Shown: positions 9,627-61,365 of the stretch, one piece after another | How positions within the stretch are numbered: position 1 is the stretch's first letter | Layout of the letters: every line of letters starts with the position of its first letter | Source of the DNA: a virus | Lineage: Duplodnaviria > Caudoviricetes | IMG/VR virus record: IMGVR_UViG_3300033074_001936 | Span: 30,915 to 94,914 of that record | DNA: 64,000 bases | Strand: one strand, 5' to 3' | Position numbers and translations under genes: made by a program | The notes under the pieces: model-generated | What the model saw: the letters and a program-made list of their open reading frames with translations, nothing else | Told to the model about the DNA's origin: nothing | Databases searched by the model: none

Positions 9627-10004
9627 ATGTCCATCCAGAAGATTGACGAGGCATTCACGTACGCGGAGAACGCGGGCGCGGACTTGTCCGAGAAGCTCCA
9701 CTTCTTCGCCAAGATCGACACCGATGGCGACATCGTGCTCGCCGGCGATGGCGGGCCGGTTGCCGGCGTCATCATCGAGTCGGCGGCGGAGAACTATCCC
9801 GTTTCCATCGCGTTCGGCGCCATCGGCAAGGTGATCTGTGCCGAAGCGATCACTCCGGGGGCGATCATCGCCTCCGACGCCGACGGCAAGGCGGTTGCGG
9901 CGGCGGCCGGCGACTGGATCGTCGGCATCGCCATCAACAAAGCCGCCTCCACCGCAGGTGACCTCGTTCCGTTCATCTTCGCGTCCGGTCGCCGGCACGC
10001 ATAA
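9627..10004 (+). CDS. Capsid decoration/cement protein (DUF2190-like)
   Basis: GAIGKVICAEAITPGAIIASDADGKAV; directly upstream of the major capsid gene. Confidence 0.75.
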   Translation: MSIQKIDEAFTYAENAGADLSEKLHFFAKIDTDGDIVLAGDGGPVAGVIIESAAENYPVSIAFGAIGKVICAEAITPGAIIASDADGKAVAAAAGDWIVGIAINKAASTAGDLVPFIFASGRRHA

Positions 10005-10035
10005 CCCCTGATTAACTCAAACAGGAGACCCCGCG

Positions 10036-11022
10036 ATGCCCGCGAGTAACATTCGAGGCACCATCCACGTCGACCGGTACCTGACGAACTTTTCTCTGGC
10101 CTGGATTCAGAGTCAAGTTCACTTCGTCGGGCGTCGCGCGTCGACCATCATCCCGGTCACCAATCAGTCCAACAAGTACGTCGTGTATCCGCGCGGCTAC
10201 TTCTGGCGGGATGAGTCCAAGCCGCGCCCCCTCGGCGGCCGCCCCGTTCAGATCACCTACGAGGTCGGGGAGGGCACCTACTCCGCGCAGGAGTGGGCGC
10301 TCGAGCACCTCATCGACGACCGGCAGCGTGCCAACACCGACGCGCCCATCAACCTCGACGAGAATGCCACGCGGCTCCTGTCGATGAAGCAGATGATTCG
10401 CATGGATCGTCTGTGGGCGGAGAAGTTCTTCGTCCCCGGCGCCTGGACGACCTTGCGCGTCGGCACCGCATCGACGCCCGGCGCCGGTCAGTTCCTGCAG
10501 TTCGGCGACGCGAACTCCGATCCGATCATGACCATCGACGCCGCCAAGGATGCGATGTTCAAGATCACCGGGTTTATGCCGAATACGCTGGTCCTGGGAT
10601 CCGATGTGCGGACCCAACTGCGGAGCCACCCCGACATCGCCGACCGCATCAAGTACACCGGCGTGGGCCTGGCCGATGAGGCCAAGCTTCAGGAGCTGTT
10701 CGACGTGCCGAACGTGGTGACGGCCCGCGCGCTGTACACGACGTCCGCGGAGGGCGCCACCGATGCGTTCGACCACATCGTCGACTCCAAGTCGATGTGG
10801 CTCGGGTACATCGCCCCCTCCCCGGCGCTCGACACTCCGACGGCCATCGCGACGTTCGCGTGGACGGGCCTCCTCCCCGGCGTGACCAACGCCCTCGGCG
10901 GGGTCATGGAGCGCGGCCGTGATGATCGCGCGCACTCCGACTGGTTCCACAATCGGATGGCGTTCGACATCAAGCAGGTGTCGGCCGACCTCGGCATCTT
11001 CTTTCAGAACGCCGTCGCGTAA
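10036..11022 (+). CDS. Major capsid protein
   Basis: HVDRYLTNFS, SDPIMTIDAAK...TGFMPNTLVLG, HPDI; 328 aa; strong RBS; synteny. Confidence 0.9.
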   Translation: MPASNIRGTIHVDRYLTNFSLAWIQSQVHFVGRRASTIIPVTNQSNKYVVYPRGYFWRDESKPRPLGGRPVQITYEVGEGTYSAQEWALEHLIDDRQRANTDAPINLDENATRLLSMKQMIRMDRLWAEKFFVPGAWTTLRVGTASTPGAGQFLQFGDANSDPIMTIDAAKDAMFKITGFMPNTLVLGSDVRTQLRSHPDIADRIKYTGVGLADEAKLQELFDVPNVVTARALYTTSAEGATDAFDHIVDSKSMWLGYIAPSPALDTPTAIATFAWTGLLPGVTNALGGVMERGRDDRAHSDWFHNRMAFDIKQVSADLGIFFQNAVA

Positions 11023-30317: not shown

Positions 30318-32177
30318 TTATCTCGACTGGATGCGGGCGCCTTCTACACCATGTTCAATTATTATGGTCGAAGCGAATTGCAGCCCCTCCTCGGAGTGGT
30401 GGTCAACGTAGAAGATCTTAAGGCCGGCGGCTTGTGCATACTCTCCGAGCAGTAGCACGAGGTCGCGAACCCCCTCCCGCGACAAGCCGCGGGTCGGCTC
30501 ATCGAGAACGCGGAAGTCCAAGCACATCCCAGCATGGCTGAGGAGAGCCTCGGATAAGGCCAGCGCGCCGGCCAGCCGCAGTCGCTGCCTCTCACCGCCT
30601 GAGTATGACTCCCACCGCGCGCCGCCGGCAGGGCCGCCCGGCGCCCGCACCACGACCGCCAGCGCCCGCTGCGTCGTGCCACTCTTGGTCTCCCGCTCTG
30701 TCGCGTATTTGACTTCCCACTCCCCGAGCCCGAGCCCCTCGAGGACTTCGGCGGTCGTTGCGGTCAAGTCGGCAAGGAGATCATCAATGAGGCGCAGCCG
30801 GATGTCGCGAAAGCCGCGTGCCCAAAACTGCGCGCGTTCAATGCCGGACTCAATTTTGGAGAGGATGGTTTCCTTAGCCTTGATCTCTCGCTTGAGTCCG
30901 GCGATGCGGCCGCGCGCCTCCCGCGCGGCGTCGCGGTGCGGGTTCTCCGCAGCCTCCGCTTCCCGGAGCGCGACGTCTGCGGCTGCGTACTGCGCCTGAG
31001 CCTCCCCTACTCCCCGCTCGAGGAGGCGCAAGTTGCCCTCGGCTTTGCTCTCTTCTTCGACGAGCTTGCGCAGCCGCGGCTCATCTCGGCGGAGGCGCTC
31101 GCGCGCGGCATCGCATGACTTCAAGGCAGCTTGGGCCGCCTTGTCGGCCGCTGCGAGCGCCGCTTCCGCTTCTTTGAGCCGGGCGGCGAACCGGGCCTCC
31201 TGCCCGGCGCCGATGGCCTGCCCGCATGTCGGGCAGCGCGCCGACTTCTTCTTGGTCGTGATCGCGGCGAGGTGCGCGCGCAGCTCGCGAGCCTCGGCAT
31301 CGGCGGCTCGCGCGGCGGCATTTGCCCCCCGCGCCTCCGCCTCGAGCCGCATGACGTCCGCCCGGAGCGCCTCTACATCCGGGCGCAGGAGGCGCGCCGC
31401 CAGCCCGGCCCGGTCCGACTCCGCGGCGGCTTCCCCCCGGAGGGCCTCGAGCTGATCCGCTCGCGCTCGCGCAGCCTTGAGCTCTGATGCGTTTTTCTCG
31501 ATTATGGCGGCATGAGAGCCCACCCAGCGGTTCGACGCATCTCTGGCCGCCCTGAGCGCCCCCAGGCCATGCTCCAGGGCCGCCCGGAGCCCCCGCACCT
31601 CCCCCTCCAGCCCCGCCCGGCGCCTATCTAGCCGCCGGGCGCGGTCCCCCGCGGCCTCGGCCCGCCGCTCCCAGCGCTCGAGCCCGAGGGCGTCGGATAG
31701 GAGGGCCATCTTGTCGCGCGGGGGGAGGTCGAAGAAGAGCGGCTGGCCCTGCCCGAGGACCACGGCTTGGCACCAAGCGTCGAATGACAAGCCCATGATC
31801 GCGGCGGGGTCCTCCGACCCGGCGATCTTGCCATTGATCGTCGGCTGCGCGGAGCGGGCAGCCCGGCGCTCAATTTTAGAAATTGCGTCATCACGCTCGA
31901 GTGTGATCGCGACCTGAGGGGCCTCCTTTGCGCCCCATGATTTGATGTCGGTCGCGCGCAGCCCCTCTACAGTGCGACCATACAGGCACCAAGTCACTGC
32001 GTCAGAGAAGAATGTCGACTTACCGGCGCCGTTGGATTCGAGGCGTGGGTTAACGCGGTTGATGCCGCGAACTTGATGCAGGCCGGGCGGAAGCGCCGCG
32101 ACATCGAGGGCTGCGCGGCGGGCGAACGCCTTGAATGCCTCGACTTCGATGCGGGCGAGGGAGATGTGTTCGCTCAT
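30318..32177 (-). CDS. SbcC/Rad50-like ABC ATPase
   Basis: Walker A NGAGKS, coiled coil with CPTCGQ zinc hook, signature SGGERQR, Walker B VLDEP. Confidence 0.95.
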   Translation of the reverse strand: MSEHISLARIEVEAFKAFARRAALDVAALPPGLHQVRGINRVNPRLESNGAGKSTFFSDAVTWCLYGRTVEGLRATDIKSWGAKEAPQVAITLERDDAISKIERRAARSAQPTINGKIAGSEDPAAIMGLSFDAWCQAVVLGQGQPLFFDLPPRDKMALLSDALGLERWERRAEAAGDRARRLDRRRAGLEGEVRGLRAALEHGLGALRAARDASNRWVGSHAAIIEKNASELKAARARADQLEALRGEAAAESDRAGLAARLLRPDVEALRADVMRLEAEARGANAAARAADAEARELRAHLAAITTKKKSARCPTCGQAIGAGQEARFAARLKEAEAALAAADKAAQAALKSCDAARERLRRDEPRLRKLVEEESKAEGNLRLLERGVGEAQAQYAAADVALREAEAAENPHRDAAREARGRIAGLKREIKAKETILSKIESGIERAQFWARGFRDIRLRLIDDLLADLTATTAEVLEGLGLGEWEVKYATERETKSGTTQRALAVVVRAPGGPAGGARWESYSGGERQRLRLAGALALSEALLSHAGMCLDFRVLDEPTRGLSREGVRDLVLLLGEYAQAAGLKIFYVDHHSEEGLQFASTIIIEHGVEGARIQSR

Positions 32178-54830: not shown

Positions 54831-55406
54831 ATGGCGAAGCCAAGTCCTGCCCTGTTCGACGAACTCCTCCGCCACATCGGCGAAGATCCCAGCAGGGAGG
54901 GCTTGCTCGAGACGCCGGAGCGTGCCGCCCGAGCCTGGGCGGAGTGGACCTCCGGCTACGCCCAGGATCCCGCGGCCGTCCTCAAGTCGTTTGAGGACGG
55001 CTCGCAGGGATATGACGAGCTTGTCTTTCAGGGTAACATTCCTTGCTACTCGCACTGCGAGCATCACCTCGCGCCGTTCTTCGGGGTCGCGCACGTGGGG
55101 TACATCCCGCGCGGCCGCGTGGTCGGCCTTTCCAAGCTCTCGCGGCTGGTCGACGTTTTCGCGCGCCGCCTCCAGGTGCAGGAGCGCCTCACGGTGCAGG
55201 TCGCGGAGGCGCTGCAAGAAGTCCTCAACCCCCGCGCGGTCGGCGTGGTCCTGGAGTGCCGCCACATGTGCATGGAGTCTCGCGGCATCCAGCGCACTGG
55301 GACGGTGACCAAGACCTCCGCCCTCCTCGGCGAGTTCCGGTCTGAGCCGGACGCGCGCGCGGAGTTCATGGCGATGGTCACGTCCGCGCGCGGGAGCCGC
55401 CTGTGA
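54831..55406 (+). CDS. folE: GTP cyclohydrolase I
   Basis: REGLLETPER, CEHHL, GLSKL, RRLQVQERLT, HMCMESRG. Confidence 0.97.
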   Translation: MAKPSPALFDELLRHIGEDPSREGLLETPERAARAWAEWTSGYAQDPAAVLKSFEDGSQGYDELVFQGNIPCYSHCEHHLAPFFGVAHVGYIPRGRVVGLSKLSRLVDVFARRLQVQERLTVQVAEALQEVLNPRAVGVVLECRHMCMESRGIQRTGTVTKTSALLGEFRSEPDARAEFMAMVTSARGSRL

Positions 55407-56656
55407 GCAGGAAGAAGCGCGCGGCGGCCCCCGACCGGCTGGCGGACGTCCTCCTCGACTCGGGGGCGTTCTCTGCCTGGAACAAGGGCGAGACCATCGA
55501 CGTCAATGACTACATCGCATTCCTCAAGGCGAACCAGCACCTGGTCGCGAACTACGTCTGCCTCGACACTATCCCGGGCAGCATGGGTCGCATGGACCGG
55601 TCGCAGGAGTCGATCGAGAAGTCCGCGGAGGCGTCCTACAAGAACCAGCAGATCATGCGGGACGCGGGGCTCGCCCCGATCCCGGTATTTCACCAGGGCG
55701 AGCGCTTCGAGTGGCTCGAGAAGTACCTCGCGGACGGAGAGCCGTACATCGGCATATCACCGTACATGCGGTCGACCCAGTCAAACTTGATGCGGTGGCT
55801 CGACGAGTGCTTCACGCGGGTGACCGACTCGTCCGGGCGCCCGCTCGCGCGGACCCACGGCTTCGGAGTGACCTCGCACGAGGTGATGTGGCGCTACCCG
55901 TGGCACTCGGTGGACTCGACCACGTGGGCGATCGCGCCCGCGTACGGCATGCTGATCACGCCAAAGTGCGGGCTCGCGGGGGAGTTTGACCTGCGCCTGC
56001 CGGCGAACCAGTTTCACGTCGGCAACGGCGAGCTGCTCTCCGCATCGAAGGAGCATGGACGTTCACGTTGCATAGACGCGCTCGGCGAGCAGGCGCTGGA
56101 CTGGCTCCACAAGTTCGCGAAGATCTGCGGCACGTCGGTGACCGCGTTCCGCAACGACCAGTACGCGCGAACCACGGCGCACATCATGTACTTTCGGCTC
56201 CTCGAGGAGCGTCGGGGAGAGGTCCGGTTCGAGCACCGGCGCGGGGGCTTCTTCGCGCCTTCCGGCGCGACGCGGCGCAGCCCGGTCGACGTGAAGTTCC
56301 GGGTGATATTCGCGAGCAACCTGACCAACAAGCAGGGCCTCATCCTCACCCGTCTCGGAGTCCGCAGTCGCCTGCTCTCCTACTGGGACCTGCGGCGCTA
56401 CAAAGACGCGACCGAGCGCCTCGAGCAGTATGTCCGGACCGGCCACCTCTCCGGCGCCCTCCGCGGCCGCGCGGAGAACGACGTCGGGGGCGAGATCGCG
56501 TTCGTCGAGCCCGCGGTGCGGGTCAACTGGGACGCGATGCATTACACCGACTACCGGCGGCGGCGCCTGGTCGGGCGGTTCTTCAAGGAAGACCTGCCGG
56601 ACGTGAACATGATGGACGTGAGCGAGGCGGACATGAGCGGGGAGGAGCTGAGATGA
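55403..56656 (+). CDS. dpdA: DNA 7-deazaguanine transglycosylase (TGT-like DpdA)
   Basis: LDSGAFS, LD.IP, PVFH, HGFG, PW.SVDSTTW; overlaps folE. Confidence 0.82.
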   Translation: MSRKKRAAAPDRLADVLLDSGAFSAWNKGETIDVNDYIAFLKANQHLVANYVCLDTIPGSMGRMDRSQESIEKSAEASYKNQQIMRDAGLAPIPVFHQGERFEWLEKYLADGEPYIGISPYMRSTQSNLMRWLDECFTRVTDSSGRPLARTHGFGVTSHEVMWRYPWHSVDSTTWAIAPAYGMLITPKCGLAGEFDLRLPANQFHVGNGELLSASKEHGRSRCIDALGEQALDWLHKFAKICGTSVTAFRNDQYARTTAHIMYFRLLEERRGEVRFEHRRGGFFAPSGATRRSPVDVKFRVIFASNLTNKQGLILTRLGVRSRLLSYWDLRRYKDATERLEQYVRTGHLSGALRGRAENDVGGEIAFVEPAVRVNWDAMHYTDYRRRRLVGRFFKEDLPDVNMMDVSEADMSGEELR

Positions 56657-57708: not shown

Positions 57709-60700
57709 GTGGCGTTCTTCGGGGTTCCCGCTCCCAAGAGCGCGCGCCGGGGCGCGCCGCAGCGCTCGGGTGCGGTCTCTGTCGAGTTCCTCCACAAACA
57801 CGAGTGTGCTGTATGCCCCCTCAATAATCAGTCGGGCCTGGTGCACCCCCACATGAAGCCGACCGGCGCGGCGCGGCCCCTCGCGTACCTGGTCGGCGGG
57901 GCCCCGGGCGCCGACGAGGACCGCCGGGGCGCACACTTCGTCGGCTCCGCCGGCCGCCTCCTGCGGCGATACCTCCCCGAGAAGTGGCTGAGCAAAGTTC
58001 GCTTCAACAACGTAGTTCGGACCCGGCCCCCGAAGGACCGGGACCCGTCGCGGGTCGAAGTCGAGGCGTGCTTTCCTGCTGGAACTTTTGTCGAGCCGAT
58101 CGGGCCGGTTAAGAGCTCATATAAGCGGTGGTACGATGGCCCGCTTGTGACGGTTAAAACCGCGAGTGGGCGCATCCTCACCGGAACCCCAAACCACCCT
58201 GTATTTACAGTCGAGGGCGAGACCGCGCTCAAAGACCTCAAGATCGGCGACTACGCGTTCTGCGCAAGCGCCAGTGAGCCCGACGGCGCGCGGCGCCCAG
58301 ACGTGGATAACAAACCAGCCCGCATTGATGAGGTAGTTGAGGCGTTCAGCAAAGTCGCGAAGATGAAACGGATGCGTACCAGCGCGCTCGATTTCCACGG
58401 CGATGGTATCGTTGATGGCGAGGTCGATGTTGTAAGGGCCAGCGGCGAGTTGATGGGTAATTTTCAAGTCGGCGCGTACTCGCAAGAGCAGTTTTCTCAT
58501 CCGCACTTCGCCCTTTCCCAGCTGGGACCGCGAGGTCTGGCGCACAGCGGCGGTCTTGAGCGATGCCTCAGCGTACTTACCATGGTTGCACCTAAGCACG
58601 CGTTGCTCGCGGGTGCGCGTCCGCATCCACAAAACCATCTGCTCGGACTGGGTCCGTACCTGTGCTCCGTTTGCTTTGAGTACTTTCACAATCTGTGGAG
58701 CGCCGGTTTTGAACACGCGCGCGAGCTCCTCGGAGCTTTCACCTTTGCTGTATCTTTTAACGATCTCCTTGGCGGGAAGCGCGCGCCAGCTGACAGGCGT
58801 CCACGCCACGCGGGAGGCGGCGCTTTTATCCCGCAGCTTCATTCCGGCCTTGATAAGGAATCTCTTGATTGTAGTCCAGTCCGAGCCGGTGAGCCTTTGG
58901 AGGTCAGCGAGCGACCTACCCTCCCGGTAGAGCTTGACGAGATCGTAGCGATAGAAGTTACGCGATCGTTTAGGGGCCATGTTTACAACCTCGAGACAGG
59001 GAGCCATAAGTATATAGCAGATGGCTTCATTGTATCCAACTGCCGCCCGAGCGTCGCCCGCGACATCGAGGAGTCGAGCCCCGCGGCCATCATCGGGTTC
59101 GGCAACGTGCCGCTCGAGTGGGCGACCGGCGAGACCGGCATCAGCAAGTGGTGCGGCCGGCGCGTCCCGGTCCTGGTCGAGGGGCGCCCCTACTGGTTTT
59201 TTCCGGTCCGCCACCCGGAGGACATCTTGCGCGACCCGAAGCGCCGCGAGGTGTACGAGGGCGGGCGCGACCGCTACGGCTCCGAGGCCGAGTTTCAGTT
59301 CGTGCTTCACGTTCGCGCCGCCCTCGAGGCGATCGAGGCGGGGCTGCCTGAGCCGGCGGTGCACTCCGCGGACGCCGCGCTCGAGGGCATCGAGTGGGTC
59401 GCGGGCGCCGGCGCCGACGACGTCGAGTGGGTCCGGGCGTTCCTGCGCCGCGCGTCGCGCCGCAAGCTCGCGGGCGTGGACTACGAGACCAACGACCTGC
59501 GCCCCTACGCGCCGGGGGCGAAGATCCTCACGGCGGCGGTCGCGACCGCGCGGGACGGGGCGCTCGCCTTCCCCCTCGACCACCGGGAGGCGCGCTGGAC
59601 CCGCGCGCAGCGCGCGGCGATCGACGAGGCGTGGCGGGAGTTCTTGTACGAGGCCGAGTGCCGGAAAGTCGCGCACAACTTGACTTTTGAGATGGAGTGG
59701 TCGGCGCACTTCTACGGGAAAGACTGCCTGCGCGCGGGGCGGTGGGGCGACTCGCTGGCGCAGGCCTACATCCTGGACGAGCGCTCGGAGGGAAAGCCCG
59801 GTGCCCACAGCCTCGAGTTCCTGTGCGTCCAGTACTTCGGGATCAACATCAAGAAGCTGGCGGGAGTAAACCGAACCAACTTGGACGCCGAGCCCCTCCC
59901 GAAAGTGCTTCGGTACAACGGCCTCGACGCGAAGTACCACCAGCTGCTCTACGCGGAGCAGCTGCGCGCGCTCCGCGCCGCCGACCTGTCCGCGCTCTAC
60001 GCGGAGCACCTCGAGCGGGTCCCGGCCGCGGTCCTGACCCAGCTCAAGGGGGTACCGGTCGACCAGTCGGTCGCGCACCGCCTCGGGAAGAAGTACATGC
60101 GGCGCATGCTCGACGCCGAGCGCGCCATGCGCGAGATGCCGATCGTGCGAAAGTACGAGCGCGCGAAGGCTAAGAAGTTTCGGCCGTCCGCGAACGAGGA
60201 CGTCAAGGACGTTCTCCACGGGGCGGGCATCCACCTCGACGTCGCCGACGTCGAGGCCCTCGCCGGGGTCGACCACGACTTCGTGCGCGAGGAGGTCAAG
60301 TGGCGCAAGGCCGCCAAGATCTACGGCACCTACTTGGTCCCGGTCATGGGCGAGGACGCCCGCGCCGCGCTCGAGGCCATGCGCCGCGCGGGGCTGGAGG
60401 AGATCGGGGGCATGCTCGAGTCCCGGGAGCTGCGGCCGGCGCGGGTCTACCCGGACGGTCTCATGCACCCGCAGACCAACGTTAACCGGGTCAAGACGTC
60501 GCGGACCTCCTCGGACGACCCGAACTATCAGAACTGGCCGAAGCGCGGGGCCGCGGACGCGATCGAGGTCCGCGGTACGGTGCGGCCGCTCGACCCCGAC
60601 GAGGTGGTGGTGTCGTTCGACTACGGCCAGATCCAGGCCCGCAATGTCGGCATGGAGTCGCTCGACCGCGCCCTCCTCGACGCGTTCTGGAGCGGTTATG

Positions 60701-61365
60701 ACATCCACTACGCCTTCATGGAGCACCTCGCGCGCATCTACCCGCGCTGGGTGAAGGAGGGGGTCAAGACACTCGCGCGTGACAAAAACCTAGTTAAGAA
60801 GTACCGGAACGACGTCAAACACGGCTTCGTGTTTGCGGCATTCTTCGGCGCGCAGCCCAAGAAGTTCGCGGAGGTCCTCGAGATCCCGCTCTCGGCCGCC
60901 GAGAAGCTCGCCGACATCTTCTGGGACCGGTTCGGGGGGATCAGGAAGTGGCACCGGCGCCTCGAGGTCGACTACTACCGTACCGGCTACGTTACCGGCC
61001 ACGCGGGCTACCGGCGGCGCGCCCCGGTGAGCTACAACGAGCGCATCAACTCACCGATCCAGGCCGACGAGGCCAAGATCGTCCTCGACGCCATGATCCG
61101 CCTGTCCAAGATCGACCACGACTACCTGCAGGCCAACATGGAGATACACGACGACCTGACCTTCATCTGGCCCAAGAAGAAGGTCGACGAGCTCGCGGAG
61201 ATCGTGGTCCGGGAGATGCTTACCGTGCCGTTCGAGTGGGCGCGGACCACCCCGATCGTGGTCGAGATGTCGGTCGGCCCCGACTGGGCATCCCAGAAGG
61301 GCGCCGGGGAGTTCGCGTCGCACGAGTATGATGGGATCGACATGCCGAGGAGCTGCCCGATATGA
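57709..61365 (+). CDS. Family A DNA polymerase with N-terminal family-4-like uracil-DNA glycosylase domain; contains an intein
   Basis: UDG: CAVCPL, GGAPGADED..G.HFVGSAG, HP; exonuclease: DYET, AHN..FE, YNGLD; polymerase: TSRTSSDDPNYQN, DYGQIQAR, NSPIQ, IHDDL. Confidence 0.93.
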   Translation: MAFFGVPAPKSARRGAPQRSGAVSVEFLHKHECAVCPLNNQSGLVHPHMKPTGAARPLAYLVGGAPGADEDRRGAHFVGSAGRLLRRYLPEKWLSKVRFNNVVRTRPPKDRDPSRVEVEACFPAGTFVEPIGPVKSSYKRWYDGPLVTVKTASGRILTGTPNHPVFTVEGETALKDLKIGDYAFCASASEPDGARRPDVDNKPARIDEVVEAFSKVAKMKRMRTSALDFHGDGIVDGEVDVVRASGELMGNFQVGAYSQEQFSHPHFALSQLGPRGLAHSGGLERCLSVLTMVAPKHALLAGARPHPQNHLLGLGPYLCSVCFEYFHNLWSAGFEHARELLGAFTFAVSFNDLLGGKRAPADRRPRHAGGGAFIPQLHSGLDKESLDCSPVRAGEPLEVSERPTLPVELDEIVAIEVTRSFRGHVYNLETGSHKYIADGFIVSNCRPSVARDIEESSPAAIIGFGNVPLEWATGETGISKWCGRRVPVLVEGRPYWFFPVRHPEDILRDPKRREVYEGGRDRYGSEAEFQFVLHVRAALEAIEAGLPEPAVHSADAALEGIEWVAGAGADDVEWVRAFLRRASRRKLAGVDYETNDLRPYAPGAKILTAAVATARDGALAFPLDHREARWTRAQRAAIDEAWREFLYEAECRKVAHNLTFEMEWSAHFYGKDCLRAGRWGDSLAQAYILDERSEGKPGAHSLEFLCVQYFGINIKKLAGVNRTNLDAEPLPKVLRYNGLDAKYHQLLYAEQLRALRAADLSALYAEHLERVPAAVLTQLKGVPVDQSVAHRLGKKYMRRMLDAERAMREMPIVRKYERAKAKKFRPSANEDVKDVLHGAGIHLDVADVEALAGVDHDFVREEVKWRKAAKIYGTYLVPVMGEDARAALEAMRRAGLEEIGGMLESRELRPARVYPDGLMHPQTNVNRVKTSRTSSDDPNYQNWPKRGAADAIEVRGTVRPLDPDEVVVSFDYGQIQARNVGMESLDRALLDAFWSGYDIHYAFMEHLARIYPRWVKEGVKTLARDKNLVKKYRNDVKHGFVFAAFFGAQPKKFAEVLEIPLSAAEKLADIFWDRFGGIRKWHRRLEVDYYRTGYVTGHAGYRRRAPVSYNERINSPIQADEAKIVLDAMIRLSKIDHDYLQANMEIHDDLTFIWPKKKVDELAEIVVREMLTVPFEWARTTPIVVEMSVGPDWASQKGAGEFASHEYDGIDMPRSCPI
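58069..59040 (+). mobile_element. Intein (324 aa) in the UDG domain
   Basis: C1 CFPAGT, block B TPNHPV, block F GHVYNLET, block G IVSN then +1 Cys; removal restores VEVEA-CRPSV; lower GC than flanks. Confidence 0.93.
58117..58980 (-). CDS. Antisense gene inside the intein: two HTH repeats plus a Vsr/DUF559-like endonuclease (287 aa)
   Basis: GAGGT 7 nt before ATG; repeats LY..G.S...L......I...L...G...R..S; GEVRMRKLL, Q...GPYNIDLA, IAVEIE...H, R.NYL.NAGWFVIHVW. Confidence 0.85.
   Translation of the reverse strand: MAPKRSRNFYRYDLVKLYREGRSLADLQRLTGSDWTTIKRFLIKAGMKLRDKSAASRVAWTPVSWRALPAKEIVKRYSKGESSEELARVFKTGAPQIVKVLKANGAQVRTQSEQMVLWMRTRTREQRVLRCNHGKYAEASLKTAAVRQTSRSQLGKGEVRMRKLLLRVRADLKITHQLAAGPYNIDLAINDTIAVEIERAGTHPFHLRDFAERLNYLINAGWFVIHVWAPRAVGLTGACAERVVADLEVFERGLALDCKYRVVWGSGEDAPTRGFNRHKRAIVPPLI

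Follow-up and report, generated by a model that had tools for sequence, protein, structure and literature searches.

Inteins whose endonuclease gene lies on the opposite strand have been described. Gosselin, Arsenault and Gogarten (bioRxiv 10.1101/2025.01.02.630785, version October 2025) reported complete inteins with anti-sense VSR-like homing endonucleases in actinobacteriophages; the centre of the in-frame intein is unstructured in these cases, and free-standing relatives of the endonucleases were reported as well. The present work concerns a 324-codon intein in a stretch of 64,000 nucleotides from a virus of the Caudoviricetes (positions 30,915 to 94,914 of IMG/VR record IMGVR_UViG_3300033074_001936; this whole stretch is called the window below). 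The minus strand of the intein carries an open reading frame (ORF) for a predicted nuclease, P0001. The element is probably a mobile intein and belongs to the 'anti-sense VSR-like homing endonuclease' kind. It interrupts the UDG-like domain of a UDG–DNA polymerase A (UDG-PolA) fusion, before a conserved cysteine (..E-V-E-A/C-R-P-S.., where the slash marks the insertion point).

The element agrees with those of the preprint in having an antisense endonuclease ORF in a complete intein, an open sense frame and homology to the actinophage members. It differs from the actinophage inteins studied there (from PhagesDB) in belonging to an uncultured phage of wastewater and activated sludge, with 70% GC, and in the domain that it interrupts, the UDG-like part of a UDG-PolA fusion. 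The family as seen here is also present in phages of Escherichia, Pseudomonas, Aggregatibacter and Idiomarinaceae, and in the window and its relatives the start codon, the Shine–Dalgarno sequence and a promoter-like site lie opposite splicing blocks F and G, with the 3′ end of the ORF opposite block B. A preliminary description of this DNA, made from its letters alone, knew of no account of such an architecture; this claim of novelty is not upheld, as the preprint describes antisense VSR-like endonucleases in complete inteins. The accompanying biological reading as a dual-coded element is well supported by comparative sequence evidence. The size of the family and its spread outside actinophages, the overlap with blocks B, F and G and the switch of selection between frames may go beyond the preprint. 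The window itself is of confirmatory value; it adds one member, which comes from an uncultured phage and sits in its UDG-PolA gene.

The preprint (bioRxiv 10.1101/2025.01.02.630785) also cites inteins with an anti-sense ORF for a LAGLIDADG endonuclease, such as that of Synechocystis DnaX (Gorbalenya 1998; Gogarten et al. 2002). These ORFs likewise lie opposite a complete intein and, as far as that citation goes, differ from the present element in the endonuclease family, LAGLIDADG instead of Vsr-like. In the fractured genes of Dassa et al. 2009 (PMC2677866), a free-standing gene for a Vsr-like or GIY-YIG endonuclease lies between the halves of a split intein. The likeness to the window consists in a Vsr-like gene with its own signals, placed between the N- and C-terminal splicing parts in phage-like DNA. 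However, the endonuclease gene of a fractured gene is in the orientation of the host gene, which is broken into two genes joined by trans-splicing, whereas the window nuclease is antisense, in codon register, and leaves the host frame continuous. The homing endonuclease I-Bth0305I of the EDxHD family (Taylor et al. 2011, PMC3239194) is encoded by a group I intron and carries NUMOD-type DNA-binding motifs; P0001, by contrast, is nested in an intein, has two helix-turn-helix (HTH) units of HTH_58/resolvase-like type and shows no evident equivalent of D222. With about 860 bases of two-strand protein coding in an essential phage gene, the locus is a natural case of antiparallel overlapping genes under opposing selective constraints, and it bears on the acquisition of endonucleases by inteins and the 'splicing first' model (Dassa et al. 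2009, PMC2677866; bioRxiv 10.1101/2025.01.02.630785).

The putative antisense nuclease, its family and its candidate signals

The minus-strand ORF is accepted as a gene because of homology, structure and comparative selection, and not because of its length. A phmmer search with P0001 against 1.84 billion representative sequences gave 1,562 clusters at E<=1e-3 and 490 at E<=1e-10, mostly of about 280-300 aa and aligned end to end. P0001 matches the Pfam model HTH_58 over the cut-off and REase_MTES_1575 at E 3.7e-4, with weak NCBIfam matches to a Cbp1-type HTH and to DUF559; among 52 aligned members of the family, HTH_58 is matched by 37 and the REase model by 35, down to E 1.5e-11. With a profile of the family, the DUF559-like structure 3hrl is matched at E 3e-6, and 2lvs, a protein with two HTHs, at E 1e-10. 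Residues Y18, G80, Y183 and D186 are invariant in the 52-member alignment and E158, Q177, N184, A194, E196, R213, G265 and G267 are nearly so; P0001 retains all of them.

The AlphaFold model of P0001 has a mean predicted local distance difference test score (pLDDT) of 88.3. It comprises two three-helix HTH units (residues ~10-50 and ~66-105), a helical linker and an alpha/beta domain (~153-270) of the Vsr/EDxHD-like kind, with the Vsr-type nuclease fold, in which E158, the invariant D186, E196 and H202 are the counterparts of EDxHD residues. The preliminary description had proposed two HTH repeats and an ordered set of Vsr-like motifs. The HTH_58 and REase/DUF559 matches and these four residues agree with it, except that the last EDxHD aspartate is not evident. 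Its expectation for profile and structure searches of both translations also held, with HTH and nuclease matches on the minus strand and Hint at the ends of the sense product. A nuclease of only 233-245 aa is encoded at four related loci (L002, L006, L011 and L012, from Mycobacterium phage Sejanus, Pseudomonas phages and the Gordonia phages Sedona and APunk); it appears to lack the first HTH unit and is otherwise intact.

The sense product has the features of an intein only at its two ends. It has Cys1, T-P-N-H at residues 40-43, a terminal V-S-N followed by Cys, and a Hint fold. In an AlphaFold model built on four sequences, residues 1 to ~104 (pLDDT mostly 60-88) and 287-324 (72-91 for the C-terminal Hint part) are folded, and residues 124-285 remain at pLDDT 25-35. 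A Pfam search of the sense-frame centre (58441..58923) gave zero matches. In the sense frame, the conserved motif D-F-H-G-D stands opposite the catalytic strand (I/V)-A-V-E-(I/V) of the nuclease, and its His turns into Asp or Tyr exactly where the Val codon of the nuclease wobbles. Compared with relatives, the same central bases score 55-182 bits in the nuclease frame versus 15-53 bits in the sense frame; against the closest relative, an AT-rich metagenome contig (L004), the values are 41.6% identity and 182 bits versus 23% and 53 bits. The sense centre had been described beforehand as an antisense shadow, a view with which its missing Pfam match, its low pLDDT, the D-F-H-G-D complement and the weaker sense similarity are all in accord.

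The coordinates of the element are given in table 1. The nuclease ORF and the sense frame of the intein are in exact codon register, with common codon boundaries, and the start, ribosome-binding site, promoter-like site and stop of the nuclease gene all fall within the intein. The N-terminal Hint part is dual-coded from 58117 on, opposite the C-terminal third of the nuclease gene, where the conserved C-terminal nuclease strand Y-R-V-(I/V)-x-G-x-G-E stands opposite T-G-T-P-N-H-P of block B. Much of this had been read from the letters in the preliminary description (the 324-aa intein with its splicing motifs, the 287-aa minus-strand ORF in register, GAGGT 7 nt upstream of its ATG, a TATACT further upstream, and start, ribosome-binding site and stop inside the intein with an overlap of block B) and was recovered at the same positions, the TATACT as the -10 element of a longer promoter-like site.

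Table 1. Features of the dual-coded intein and its host gene (window coordinates).
Feature	Position	Strand	Remarks
UDG-DNA polymerase A host gene	57709..61365	+	1218-codon ORF; precursor of 1218 aa with intein
N-extein end GTCGAGGCG (V-E-A)	58060..58068	+	left half of presumed homing site
Intein	58069..59040	+	324 codons; Cys1, block B T-x-x-H, block F V-Y-N-L-E-T, end V-S-N, then Cys+1
N-terminal Hint part, intein residues 1-124	58069..58440	+	blocks A and B; T-G-T-P-N-H at 58180-58197
Sense-frame linker, intein residues about 125-285	58441..58923	+	without predicted structure; antisense shadow of nuclease gene
C-terminal Hint part, residues about 286-324	58924..59040	+	blocks F and G
C-extein start TGCCGCCCG (C-R-P)	59041..59049	+	right half of presumed homing site
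Putative homing-endonuclease gene (P0001)	58117..58980	-	287 aa + TGA
TGA stop of nuclease gene	58117..58119	-	complement of Ser codon TCA, intein residue 17
ATG start of nuclease gene	58978..58980	-	complement of CAT, His304, directly before block F strand
Shine-Dalgarno-like GAGGT	58988..58992	-	7 nt before ATG; antisense of block F N-L-E codons
Sigma-70-like promoter match TGGATA-N18-TATACT	59009..59038	-	antisense of block G codons (K-Y-I-A ... V-S-N)

The promoter-like site, which can also be read as TTGGAT-N17-TATATA, has 9/12 consensus matches and ranks in the top 1.1% of local 70-nt windows. It is the sole sigma-70-like match in 57900-59300 (one found versus 0.2 in shuffles). Its -10 element ends 26-28 nt before the start and is antisense of block G in the window and in four relatives, namely an E. 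coli phage (L003; TTGACT-N16-TATAAT, 11/12), L004 (TTGACA-N18-TATACT, 11/12), phage Aaphi23 (L007; 10/12) and Gordonia phage Malisha (8/12); by sigma-70 consensus, the remaining actinophage loci have no promoter-like site. The start codon in relatives stands opposite a His codon located at, or directly ahead of, the block F strand V-(Y/F)-x-L; most loci use ATG, Angelicage and probably L019 use GTG, and in L014 the start is displaced by four codons. A Shine–Dalgarno sequence (GAGG, AAGG or GGAG) occupies the same place, as the complement of N-L-E, N-L-Q or T-L-Q codons. At the other end, the nuclease frame stops at a TGA opposite a Ser TCA, from a few to ~20 residues after Cys1, in 13/13 loci compared, and in an Idiomarinaceae phage (L005) an earlier in-frame stop shortens the nuclease by four codons. 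The promoter, Shine–Dalgarno and start sites are consensus-matched candidate expression signals.

Nesting, insertion sites and selection in relatives

A tblastn search of P0001 against 50,697 phage records matched 44 of them, each match lying beneath a longer annotated coding sequence (CDS). The matched phages infect Gordonia, Mycobacterium, Pseudomonas, Escherichia (Kagunavirus), Idiomarinaceae, Aggregatibacter/Haemophilus and others; the antisense of Gordonia MuF intein regions was matched at E 1e-15 to 2e-7 and Mycobacterium phage Sejanus at E 3e-18. In all 11 phage records that were opened, the match is antisense to the annotated CDS and the nuclease ORF is intact and unannotated. The overlying CDSs code for MuF-like or minor head proteins (one annotated 'with inserted intein'), a capsid maturation protease and a hypothetical protein beside the portal gene. 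Nesting in an intein, in register and with both frames stop-free, also holds for 6/6 metagenome members sampled out of the phmmer clusters, so that the antisense nuclease lies within an intein at 17/17 related loci inspected. No free-standing family member was found among these 17 loci, which include 6 sampled from the 1,562 clusters, and a single-protein scan of IMG/VR with P0001 gave zero relatives. The preliminary description had proposed to look in related inteins for conservation of the antisense ORF, its ribosome-binding site and its catalytic residues; the ORF is kept at these loci, a Shine–Dalgarno sequence keeps its place in relatives, and E158, D186 and E196 are conserved in the 52-member alignment.

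A large endonuclease family is hidden in this way in unannotated genes, the host CDS alone being annotated over the match in 11/11 records. The members from an E. coli Kagunavirus and from Pseudomonas aeruginosa phages are potential laboratory systems for expression, homing and splicing. Among cultured phages, Escherichia phage fEg-Eco06 (L003, PQ141284.1 about 9665-10430) and Pseudomonas phage vB_Pae_BR313c (L006) have the antisense nuclease in an intein of the minor head gene. The promoter match TTGACT-N16-TATAAT is found in fEg-Eco06 and in Escherichia phage vB-Eco-KMB36.

The insertion site of the window is occupied in some relatives and empty in others. It is filled in the window and in L004, whose nuclease is 43% identical, and uninterrupted in L013 and in two IMG/VR polymerase relatives, L020 and L021 (39-41% identical; ..I-E-C/C-R-P-S..); empty sites read ..IEC/CRPS.. 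or ..IEA/CRPS.., and the Cys +1 of the C-extein is kept in all relatives. The metagenome contig L013 (42% GC) carries a homologous intein with an antisense nuclease (84-1070, minus) 16 codons upstream of the window site, at ..N-N-T-I-R/C-R-P-P..; at this point the window (58005-58068) has no intein, and Thr in place of Cys. There are therefore two insertion sites in the UDG-like domain, each before a Cys. The GC content of the element is 0.54-0.62 versus 0.69-0.72 in the flanks, and GC at third codon positions (GC3) is 0.61 in the intein sense frame versus 0.93 in the exteins. The distribution of the intein, together with its low GC and GC3 relative to the host gene, suggests mobility.

Selection was analysed by the ratio of non-synonymous to synonymous rates (ω) in relatives close enough for codon analysis, the Gordonia phages Fosterous, Vivi2 and Angelicage (Vividuovirus trio) and the pair Sedona/APunk. 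In the centre of the nuclease gene, ω is 0.19-0.28 in the nuclease frame and 0.66-0.93 in the sense frame. In the last 45 nuclease codons, opposite the N-terminal Hint part and block B, the trio gives 0.45-2.35 for the nuclease and 0.05-0.16 for the sense frame; this reversal is absent from the more diverged Sedona-APunk pair (nuclease 0.45, sense 0.71). Windows of 20 codons give a similar picture: nuclease-silent, sense-changing differences prevail in codons 81-160 and 221-240 (e.g. 21:2 and 17:0), and sense-silent differences prevail in codons 241-280 (13:2, 4:0). Judged from these Gordonia relatives, selection switches frame along the element, the centre being held in the nuclease frame and the ends in the intein frame. 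The lower dN/dS anticipated for the antisense frame was accordingly found in the centre and not in the last 45 codons, where the sense frame is the constrained one in the trio. GC3 within the window follows the same mosaic, favouring the nuclease frame centrally and the sense frame in the 3′ overlap.

Weighing of the explanations

The case for a mobile intein with its homing nuclease nested on the antisense strand is carried by the coding capacity of both strands, their folds, the nuclease family, the frame-specific purifying selection in the relatives and the patchy distribution of the intein. The sense strand would give a mini-intein-like Hint domain with an N part (residues 1 to ~124) and a C part (~286-324) joined by a disordered linker of ~160 residues, which would exist only because the sense frame must stay open. 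The Hint domain would splice itself out and restore the polymerase; we infer splicing because an intact DNA polymerase gene is needed. From the same triplets, the antisense strand would give a free-standing enzyme of 287 aa that combines two HTH units with a nuclease of Vsr/EDxHD type. The promoter-like site, Shine–Dalgarno sequence and start that would serve its expression lie on the antisense of blocks G and F, and its last ~60 codons opposite blocks A-B; since the gene and its signals are inside the intein, the whole mobility cassette would travel with it. The nuclease would cut intein-less alleles in co-infecting relatives, and recombinational repair would then copy in the intein with the nuclease gene.

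Several points weigh against this reading. Transcription, translation, cleavage specificity and splicing are deduced from sequence. The fifth EDxHD residue, the Asp equivalent to D222 of I-Bth0305I, is not clearly conserved in the nuclease family, and H202 lies in a variable loop and is kept in <90% of the 52 aligned members. The penultimate residue of the intein is Ser, where His is usual; this position is variable among relatives. The sense model was built on 4 sequences versus 52 for the nuclease, and alignment depth may cause part of the difference in confidence. The ω estimates come from the Gordonia phages and not from close relatives of the window, and the promoter call is a match to the sigma-70 consensus, possibly not the promoter type of the host.

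A further such point is that both frames being open carries no weight by itself in a window of high GC. In codon register each frame closes the other only through TTA, CTA or TCA codons, which together make up 0.37% of local codons, and 287 codons avoid all three with a probability of about 0.35 per frame. The double open frame is unremarkable in the window because its high GC makes the closing codons rare. The antisense frame in fact stays open for 869 codons (58117-60726, minus), into the polymerase gene; the extension has no protein-like features. This is a GC-driven shadow ORF, and ORF length means little in this genome. In AT-rich relatives the probability of the double open frame is far lower, at 8e-10 per frame in L004, 4e-7 in Aaphi23 (L007) and 5e-6 in the Idiomarinaceae phage (L005). 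For the double open frame, the weight against chance comes from these relatives, and not from the window alone.

The minus-strand ORF could thus be imagined as a chance shadow of GC-rich DNA, with a novel in-frame domain in the centre of the intein, and the 869-codon frame shows that long shadow ORFs arise in the window. The probability of this is very small, as the sense centre has no family match, a pLDDT of 25-35 and an ω near 0.7-0.9 in relatives, and for the antisense product there are 1,562 homologous clusters besides the matches to families, profiles and structures. We rejected this candidate on the phmmer clusters, the frame-wise ω and similarity and the structural matches, and regard it as refuted for practical purposes. 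A less extreme explanation is that the nuclease gene is a relic, that is, the intein is vertically inherited, the enzyme is unexpressed or inactive, and its frame is kept open by high GC and by the slow decay of dual-coding DNA. The probability of about 0.35 for the open frame in the window agrees with this, as do the vertical inheritance apparent in several VSR-like intein groups (bioRxiv 10.1101/2025.01.02.630785) and the failure to see an intein-less joint in metagenome contigs covering the locus. Nevertheless, P0001 keeps all the invariant and nearly invariant residues and is modelled with a pLDDT of 88, its ATG, GAGGT and promoter-like site are retained, its family shows purifying selection in the nuclease frame, and the AT-rich closest relative L004 keeps both frames open despite a probability of 8e-10; a relic therefore seems unlikely to us.

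It is also conceivable that the nuclease is active with a main role other than homing, in cutting the genomes of rival co-infecting phages, or that the minus-strand RNA serves mainly in antisense regulation of the polymerase mRNA. Free-standing endonucleases mediate marker exclusion in T-even phages, and a transcript of the minus strand would be complementary throughout to ~0.9 kb of polymerase mRNA. However, all 17 related loci are nested in inteins, across several host genes (MuF/minor head, capsid protease, UDG-PolA), which is the pattern given by a homing enzyme tied to its intein, and both empty and filled sites occur among the relatives. We consider a main role outside homing very improbable, more so than a relic.

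With the homing intein as the preferred reading, it is quite possible, if somewhat short of probable, that the Vsr-like endonuclease and its Hint subfamily form one anciently fused, co-evolving dual-coded unit and do not result from repeated invasions by free-standing endonuclease genes. The expression cassette of the nuclease would then be hard-wired on the antisense of blocks G and F, so that conservation of the intein would double as conservation of the cassette. Phages of Actinobacteria, Proteobacteria and uncultured hosts (>1,500 sequence clusters) would have received the unit as a whole in the course of its spread, and an obligatory antisense RNA might time or limit the expression of the host gene.

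Host gene and genomic surroundings

Pfam matches on the host ORF identify a family-4 UDG-like domain (UDG), a 3′-5′ exonuclease (DNA_pol_A_exo1) and a family A polymerase (DNA_pol_A), and an Intein_splicing match splits the UDG-like part. A megablast search of the host gene against phage records gave zero matches; the nearest polymerases are those of Vibrio phage MAR10-like phages, with 33% identity. The genome of the host phage has ~70% GC, and the phage is present in wastewater and activated-sludge metagenomes of many studies. Among the sequencing runs that contain it, none is listed as RNA, and four labelled 'RNA-Seq' are flagged as probable DNA. Neither a second copy of the nuclease gene nor a second intein was found in the 94.9-kb virus record.

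Among the contigs of four metagenome runs, none joins 58068 to 59041, and the joints listed, with sides of 21-22 nt, look spurious. One contig from a wastewater run covers window positions 58873-59217 and contains the last 168 bases of the intein with <=6 differences, followed by 177 extein bases with at least 19 differences and four indels (~11%, mostly at third codon positions). On the upstream side, the wastewater variant parts from the window 18 nt before the intein. It may represent the same intein in a diverged polymerase gene. From this contig the intein may be younger than the gene around it, but the hint is weak, and the constraint of dual coding is another possible cause of the difference.

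Directly upstream of the sliding-clamp and polymerase genes lie a GTP cyclohydrolase I-like gene (54831-55406) and, next to it, one resembling DpdA/tRNA-guanine transglycosylase (55403-56656). The presence of these two genes suggests 7-deazaguanine modification of the phage DNA.

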